64,000 nucleotides of DNA from Escherichia coli (GCF_046105845.1 NZ_CP151004.1), one strand, 5' to 3'; shown: positions 661-955, counted from the first letter of the stretch. The notes: generated from the letters alone by a model not told the origin. A program made the numbers and translations.

Positions 661-955
661 GACACTGACTCAGACTAAAATAAGAGGCGGGTAGTCTAGT
701 GCCGGGGCGCTCTCCCTGCAACCTTTACCCTCCTTGATGGATGACATAATCTATACACAAAATCATTCAAGATGCATCGAGATGGCAACTGAATGAGTCC
801 CCAGGAGCTTACATTAAGTAAGTGACTGGGGTGAGTGACAAATCTGTCCGGAACAGATTTGAACACCGTGTAACGGTGGCCCGTAAGGGCGAGGCTCATG
901 GATGAGCCGAGTAACTAGCAGCCAACGAAGAGGCAGTTTGAAGGATGAAGTGTAT

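Follow-up and report, generated by a model that had tools for sequence, protein, structure and literature searches.

A polymorphic ERIC element with a nested RtT/AaHKsRNA22-like module in the queA-acpH spacer of an Escherichia coli genome

The long and structured spacer between the divergent genes queA and acpH in a 64,000-nucleotide stretch of Escherichia coli DNA (the window, hereafter) represents a known type of repeat rather than a hidden regulator. The extra 203 bp that it carries are an ERIC (IRU) miniature inverted-repeat element, within which a 77-nt four-hairpin module related to RtT and AaHKsRNA22 is nested. We put at close to nine in ten the probability that this is a polymorphic repeat and not a regulator built for the locus, and that any effects on the neighboring genes are likely by-products of its position. 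In our reading it is a selfish repeat whose side effects would be a structured leader for acpH and a displaced upstream activating region for queA.

The spacer covers positions 661-955 (295 bp), between the queA start codon at 658-660 on the minus strand (CAT on the plus strand, as in the RefSeq annotation of the identical sequence of strain PCN033) and the acpH ATG at 956-958, the acpH coding sequence extending from 956 to 1537 on the plus strand. Positions 561-1060 are 100% identical to PCN033 in a genome BLAST search. In K-12 (MC4100), the spacer measures only 92 bp, and the same length was found in O157:H7 FRIK2069, 536, O91 RM7190 and A20. A preliminary description of this DNA, made from the sequence, had given a length of about 295 bp, which the start codons confirm, and had tentatively put the K-12 spacer at about 100 bp, close to the measured value; the alignment to K-12 that it called for leaves 203 bp extra in the window.

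The ERIC/IRU element lies at 752-956 on the plus strand (205 bp, or 128 bp without the nested insert), is absent from K-12 in the alignment, and is bounded by the termini TATACAC...GTGTATA, its terminal inverted repeat being formed by 752-778 and 930-956. When compared to the 127-bp E. coli ERIC consensus (PMC2759123, Table 1a), 106 of 127 positions (83%) are identical from end to end, with one 1-nt gap for the allele that carries a plain ERIC; the window copy gives an equal result, the 77-78-nt insert appearing as a single gap. The plus strand here corresponds to the reverse complement of the printed consensus. The core palindrome (793-837) carries a central hairpin (799-812/818-831) as well as the sites of both ERIC-PCR primers, ERIC1R at 793-814 on the minus strand with two mismatches and ERIC2 at 816-837 on the plus strand with one mismatch. 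Zero such matches are expected by chance, and the two primer sequences co-occur in 246 papers. The ERIC family was found at 48,167 places in 5,425 genomes, with a median of 9 and a maximum of 16 per genome, and the figure of approximately 20 copies in K-12 (PMC2267715) agrees with such a dispersed family; the 64-kb window holds a single copy. Separately, the ERIC core (786-833) gave a weak Rfam match to V_AS5, the Vibrio antisense RNA AS5 (18.2 bits, E = 0.72), which we treat as a weak echo of ERIC-like sequence; there may be some overlap between this Vibrio family and repeats of the ERIC type.

In the 5,424 complete E. coli genomes that gave a match, the spacer exists as three alleles: an empty form of 92 bp (~85%), a plain-ERIC form of 218 bp (~12.5%), and the 295-bp form of the window, with ERIC and the 77-bp insert (~2.6%). 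In a BLAST search with a 500-nt query, at least 80% of the query was covered in 821 of the 5,424 genomes (~15%), indicating that ERIC is present in them, while the remaining ~4,600 covered 59-60%, as expected for the empty 92-bp allele. The 77-bp insert occurs in 142 genomes, 139 of them at 95% identity or higher, and always as one copy per genome. A three-way alignment of K-12, the window and RIVM_C019217, an example of the 218-bp allele, separates two nested blocks. Outside the insert, the 218- and 295-bp alleles are very close: they differ at a single position over the 838 nt of the queA side, and identity is 100% wherever the 500-nt query aligns. The difference between them is the replacement of AG by 79 nt, and is not a clean indel. 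With their near-identical backgrounds, the alleles of 92, 218 and 295 bp offer a natural series for measuring what ERIC and the module do, and could show their effect on the acpH start codon and on the FIS-activated growth-rate promoter of queA-tgt-secDF.

The preliminary description had also called the spacer unusually structured, and folding calculations agree. Region 745-965 has a minimum free energy (MFE) of -85.1 kcal/mol, compared to -51.4 +/- 4.8 kcal/mol for dinucleotide shuffles (z = -7.1; 0 of 200 as good), and the values were z = -7.8 for the opposite strand and z = -5.3 for an 83-nt insert folded alone. The nested insert, located in the ERIC right arm at 839-915 on the plus strand and missing from the 218-bp allele, contains both of the hairpins that had been pointed out, with corrected positions. 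The first one, previously placed at 838-858, is formed by CAAATCTGT and ACAGATTTG at 839-847 and 853-861. The second (gctcat-gg-atgagc) had been described as overlapping the acpH ribosome-binding region; it is located at 893-908, 48 nt upstream of the annotated start, and therefore does not overlap that region. It encloses an ATG in frame with acpH (902-904), which may have been taken for the acpH start.

In the MFE fold the insert forms four consecutive plus-strand hairpins, H1 (839-861), H2 (864-878), H3 with a GTAA loop (879-890) and H4 (893-908). The consensus of the module reads (G)ACAAAUC-H1-GAUUUGAAC-H2-GCCC(C)-loop-(G)GGGC-GAG-H4-CGAGUAA. BLAST identified homologues in another ERIC, in the adhE-pgi spacer of an unusual E. 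coli isolate (78% identity), and, at 87% identity, between ybtP and ybtA in 166 Salmonella plasmids, with compensatory changes in all four stems. Pattern scans of viral contigs and metagenomes, in which the stems were left free, yielded two viral-contig loci and at least 120 metagenome loci. In pESI-type plasmids, viral contigs and at least 100 metagenome loci, the module occupies the identical internal ERIC site. Five of the seven viral-contig pattern matches were rejected as chance, as were seven metagenome matches, which were excluded from the alignment. A scan of genome contigs for hairpin 1 and its linker (AAATCTGNNNGGNNNCAGATTTGAAC) returned one match, in a Firmicutes MAG, which consisted of the hairpin only and was also ascribed to chance; this pattern was too strict because H1 covaries.

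We built a covariance model, R1, from 85 distinct copies of the module and no RtT sequences; in the window it matches 832-919 with 85.9 bits. Re-alignment with R1 gave 121 matches, corresponding to 119 distinct copies, on which the covariation statistics are based. RNAalifold applied to a MAFFT alignment recovered H1 and H4 and lost H2 and part of H3 as a result of length variation, and the model-guided alignment was used instead. The covariation analysis that the preliminary description had suggested supports the fold, with the reservations that columns fixed by the search patterns are uninformative, that the alignment is fitted to the model and that the copies are related by descent. Standard pairs occupy 96.5% of cells in the 119 copies, the corresponding values being 81.5% after shuffling and 24-44% after a shift of the partners by 1-3 columns; compensatory changes are found in 21 of 25 pairs, and cells with double changes number 363, versus 76 +/- 7 in shuffles. 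Several pairs display three or four pair types, one H1 pair, for example, being UA in 52 copies, GC in 34 and CG in 19.

The contexts of the module, given here by example among the matches listed, are of four kinds. The commonest enterobacterial one among these matches is the fixed site in the ERIC right arm. A second is the mirror site in the ERIC left arm, and some ERICs carry two modules in one orientation. Eight such two-module ERICs were seen, and left-arm modules are more diverged, with R1 scores of 25-80 bits compared to 85-106 bits. In G+C-rich soil contigs, a tRNA-Glu(CUC) gene precedes the module by approximately 90-180 nt; an 11-bp stem encloses the module, and the tRNA 3' end, CCA included, is repeated after it. 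Soil copies are also found near tRNA-Thr and tRNA-Ser genes. Eight tRNA-linked soil loci were recorded, with two more besides. Lastly, the module forms head-to-tail arrays in three contigs.

Two of the ERIC-borne copies merit separate mention. The closest whole-element relative among the matches listed occupies the leuO-ilvI spacer of an enterobacterial contig (L056, 3383-3585; 85% over 204 nt), indicating that ERIC plus module is a unit common to several species at unrelated loci. In E. coli 38I23CPO002 (NZ_CM148361.1, 3755634-3758709), a truncated adhE adjoins pgi, with ERIC and the module between them. These two genes are presumably not adjacent in ordinary E. coli, and the junction suggests that the DNA was rearranged, is of foreign origin or was wrongly assembled in this record.

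We then compared the insert to curated RNA families. RF02902 (AaHKsRNA22) matches window positions 830-925 with 29.1 bits (E = 5e-4), below its gathering score of 39.8, and other ERIC-embedded copies with 37-39 bits. RF00391 (RtT; gathering score 45 bits) gave no match in the window at E <= 10; it recognizes the tRNA-linked soil copies at full length with 34-35 bits, below the threshold of 45, and the array copies over model positions 32-112, while a bona fide RtT in one of the contigs scored 90.6 bits. Conversely, R1 aligns at full length to all four K-12 tyrT/rttR units (26.2, 25.3, 24.0 and 14.3 bits; E = 1.5e-5 to 0.03), and the tyrT-tyrV-rttR layout of K-12 is that of the tRNA-linked soil copies. 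These matches make it very probable that the insert is homologous to the RtT/AaHKsRNA22 unit and works like it. Since it misses the curated scores of both families and is devoid of a tRNA context and a closing stem, it was filed under neither; a search for tRNA and tmRNA genes at 600-1000 found none, and on either side of the module lie the arms of ERIC.

Processing of the tyrT transcript yields RtT, for which a link to the stringent response has been proposed and is unproven (bioRxiv 10.1101/2024.07.17.603846). The function of this RNA has been unclear since 1991, and its structure is backed by covariation in an independent analysis. The pairing of the module could in principle reflect single-stranded DNA structure rather than RNA, the module acting as DNA, for instance as a hairpin site for a recombinase or transposase. 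One fixed site per ERIC arm with constant orientation to ERIC, head-to-tail arrays, presence that varies between otherwise identical ERIC copies, and two strands that fold about equally well would all suit a DNA-level role. We nevertheless consider it quite improbable: in the module alignment G-U outnumbers A-C by 52:22 on the given strand, which mildly favors an RNA read in that sense, corresponding to the acpH direction in the window; no associated transposase was seen; and the relatives are RNAs, RtT being processed from tyrT, with rttR annotated in K-12, and AaHKsRNA22 being an sRNA in Rfam.

In the literature searched, we found no link between ERIC insertions, RtT and AaHKsRNA22, and no account of the spread of the module outside enterobacteria. 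The link itself is probably real; its originality is uncertain. It ties the 'insertions' in ERICs to RtT RNA, and implies that RtT-like units, with strong covariation, are common beyond enterobacteria. A broader proposal, which we put forward tentatively, is that the insert is one copy of a four-hairpin RNA module that is widely distributed and selected for its structure, apparently undescribed as one family, and that would be the repeat unit of RtT and of the tRNA tails of soil Proteobacteria (Glu, Thr, Ser) as well as AaHKsRNA22, and that would have repeatedly entered one fixed site per ERIC arm and formed tandem arrays. Given its presence or absence in an otherwise identical E. coli ERIC, it would move or be removed by a site-specific mechanism of its own. 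If this were true, a mobile module would account for both the long-noted 'insertions within ERIC sequences' and the '201-bp insertion' of pESI discussed below.

On the acpH side, the element appears to sit at a TA directly before the start codon. The final base of its terminal TA is the first A of the acpH ATG, and consequently the right end of ERIC would supply the acpH Shine-Dalgarno sequence, for which the candidate is AAGGA at 941-945 on the plus strand, in the ERIC right arm and 10 nt before the ATG. This is the only good candidate in the window allele, the Shine-Dalgarno of K-12 acpH being weak (GGA). With an assumed 5' end, the predicted cost of opening positions -16 to +3 is 4.3 kcal/mol here, 7.2 kcal/mol in the 218-bp allele and 2.8 kcal/mol in K-12, and the predicted occlusion of the ribosome-binding site in the window allele is modest. 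The in-frame ATG at 902-904 (plus strand), inside H4 and preceded by GAGG at 891-894, opens a reading frame of 902-1537 and, if used, would add 18 residues to AcpH, whose RefSeq start is 956.

An acpH transcript starting upstream of 752 would carry a leader made of the ERIC hairpin and the module in sense orientation, the latter forming a multi-branch insert in the predicted leader fold. With AAGGA and the ATG partly paired in the ERIC stem, translation of acpH would be modestly damped or conditioned. A scan of 560-1060 found no promoter- or terminator-like site; it is uninformative as to promoters, because it also missed the putative queA promoter. Information on the acpH transcription start was not found in the literature searched. 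In Yersinia, co-transcribed ERICs are described as altering mRNA stability in an orientation-dependent manner, as far as the work of De Gregorio et al. (2005) is relayed in PMC2229807 and PMC2267715.

A comparable arrangement was observed elsewhere. In three contigs (L020, at approximately 6200-6420, L083 and L024), an ERIC subtype with window-type arms (ACACAAAATCATTC...GAAGGATGAAGTGT) carries the module in place of the core, and its terminus directly adjoins a trmH-like gene at the ATG (MNLQRYARICEMLARRQ...). It may thus happen repeatedly that a ribosome-binding site is provided by the right end of an ERIC.

On the queA side, the putative core promoter of the queA (tgt/sec) operon lies at 693-721 on the minus strand, with TTGCAG (716-721), a 17-nt spacing, TAGACT (693-698) and a G+C-rich discriminator, and is identical in K-12. 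ERIC begins approximately 66 bp upstream of the inferred transcription start, and would displace all DNA beyond it by 203 bp. The 30 bp between promoter and element (722-751) are diverged, reading CCTTTACCCTCCTTGATGGATGACATAATC in the window and CCTTTACCCCCTTTTGGATAGAATATAATC in five empty alleles. ERIC-bearing and empty alleles differ in the 25-30 bp directly left of the element even where their QueA and AcpH proteins are identical, as in O91 RM7190 and PCN033. The five empty alleles that were read have ATAATCGATG, with G where the TA target requires T (ATAATCTATG), and an empty site with the flank of the window itself found no match in 5,426 genomes.

On the queA strand, the K-12 flank reads GATTATATTCTATCC; it contains a G-N13-C FIS-type core centered near -58 and abuts the insertion point. 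We take the center of the FIS site upstream of the queA promoter to be at -58 as well. As cited in PMC2018646, Slany & Kersten (1992) reported an upstream activating sequence in front of the queA promoter that includes a FIS site of high affinity. Half of the FIS-type site differs in ERIC-bearing alleles, and since it is no longer that of K-12, the queA-tgt-yajC-secDF promoter may be activated differently by FIS; from the sequence, such a change is plausible.

These features could be taken to mean that the insertion is an adaptive rewiring, which would provide acpH with a better Shine-Dalgarno sequence and a structure-gated leader, and may retune FIS activation of queA-tgt-sec. The ERIC terminus meets the acpH ATG exactly, giving AAGGA; a like ERIC subtype abuts a trmH-like start (GAAGGATGAAGTGTA-ATG, in L020 and L083); the element has reached a frequency of 15%; and the flank that carries the FIS-type site is specifically diverged. 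The element is, however, missing in 85% of E. coli, and its frequency could stem from lineage structure or from hitch-hiking with a linked extra gene downstream of acpH. We thus judge adaptation unlikely, and retain the reading of a selfish repeat whose position has side effects.

The gene in question is an A+T-rich hypothetical gene between acpH and malZ (1558-3015, minus strand). It is absent in K-12, where malZ directly follows acpH, and present in PCN033 (485 aa, WP_000155949.1) and RIVM_C019217. The allele in the window has diverged and is interrupted in frame by a stop codon (...DFDQQLF*RTFSGG...), which splits it into open reading frames 1807-2943 and 1558-1767, and a Pfam search with this gene returned no family above threshold. 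The window follows PCN033 exactly up to approximately 1465 and then diverges, so that the acpH 3' end and the hypothetical gene resemble a hot spot of recombination, linked to the haplotype with ERIC.

Regulatory sites, a small RNA or a leader had been suggested for this spacer in the preliminary description. What survives of this suggestion is a covarying module related to RtT and AaHKsRNA22, lying where the acpH leader must run; what falls is its local character, as the sequence is a dispersed, polymorphic repeat, absent from ~85% of genomes, with no promoter or terminator of its own found. Dedicated control of queA or acpH by a small RNA, riboswitch or leader encoded here would match the strong predicted structure and the position between two divergent genes, yet it is already largely refuted, and we regard it as very improbable. 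The repeat also occurs at ybtP-ybtA, leuO-ilvI, upstream of trmH and at adhE-pgi, most E. coli are devoid of it, the Rfam search of the spacer revealed no riboswitch or known cis-regulator, and the scan of 560-1060, which is insensitive, detected no promoter or terminator.

ERIC elements are already known, as are their polymorphism and the structured insertions that some of them contain. The names ERIC, IRU and RU-1 reportedly designate the same element, in work attributed to Sharples & Lloyd (1990), Hulton et al. (1991) and Wilson & Sharp (2006). Like ERIC/IRU, the window copy is a multi-copy, intergenic, imperfect palindrome of 127-128 bp with a conserved primer-site core and TATAC/GTATA termini, and is predicted to form a long RNA hairpin. 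Unlike the usual ERIC, it is polymorphic, K-12, O157 and 536 having no copy at this locus; its terminus extends into a start codon; and it houses a nested 77-bp module. Insertions of ~70 bp inside ERICs are said to have been reported by Cromie, Collins & Leach (1997) and by Sharp (1997; Mol Microbiol 24:1311-1315); the window module resembles these in being a well-folded interruption at a fixed internal site, and differs in that, within E. coli, it is essentially confined to the queA-acpH locus.

A related system with transcript data is ybtA of pESI in Salmonella Infantis, where a '201-bp insertion' was described in the 5' UTR, downstream of the RACE-mapped start (PMC11225919). The same study noted a 125-bp ERIC at the equivalent site of Y. 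enterocolitica, held the 201-bp element to be different from ERIC, and showed that ybtA with the 201-bp leader is still regulated by Fur and YbtA (PMC11225919). We find that the pESI-type element (L006, 1406-1617, plasmid pRM11065-2, between ybtP and ybtA, and also a second sequence, L091) is an ERIC with the module, the latter being 87% identical over 77 nt and scoring 96.8 bits with R1. The 201 bp are thus probably the sum of a Yersinia-type ERIC of ~125 bp and a 76-nt module. Its location downstream of the mapped start indicates that the pESI element is transcribed as a leader, and by analogy a leader composed of ERIC and module appears to be compatible with expression. As in the window, the pESI element combines ERIC with the four-hairpin module, here in a mapped 5' UTR; in contrast to the window, it ends approximately 40 nt before the ybtA ATG and does not overlap the start codon.

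As for the module itself, it resembles AaHKsRNA22 (RF02902, Aggregatibacter sRNA 22) in its four consecutive hairpins, which agree with the MFE fold, and in its linkers (ACAAA..., UUUGAAC, GGCCCC-loop-GGGGCGAG and CGAGUA), and is set apart by a window score under the gathering value (29.1 versus 39.8 bits). With RtT it shares the block of H2, GCCC-loop-GGGC, GAG and H4, as well as the GAGUAAUC tail, while the window copy has neither the closing stem of RtT nor its 5' hairpin nor its tRNA 3'-end repeat. The soil copies are more like RtT in their setting: they follow a tRNA gene, are closed by a stem and end with a repeat of the tRNA 3' end; unlike E. coli tyrT-rttR, they are associated with other tRNAs and are found in non-enteric bacteria.
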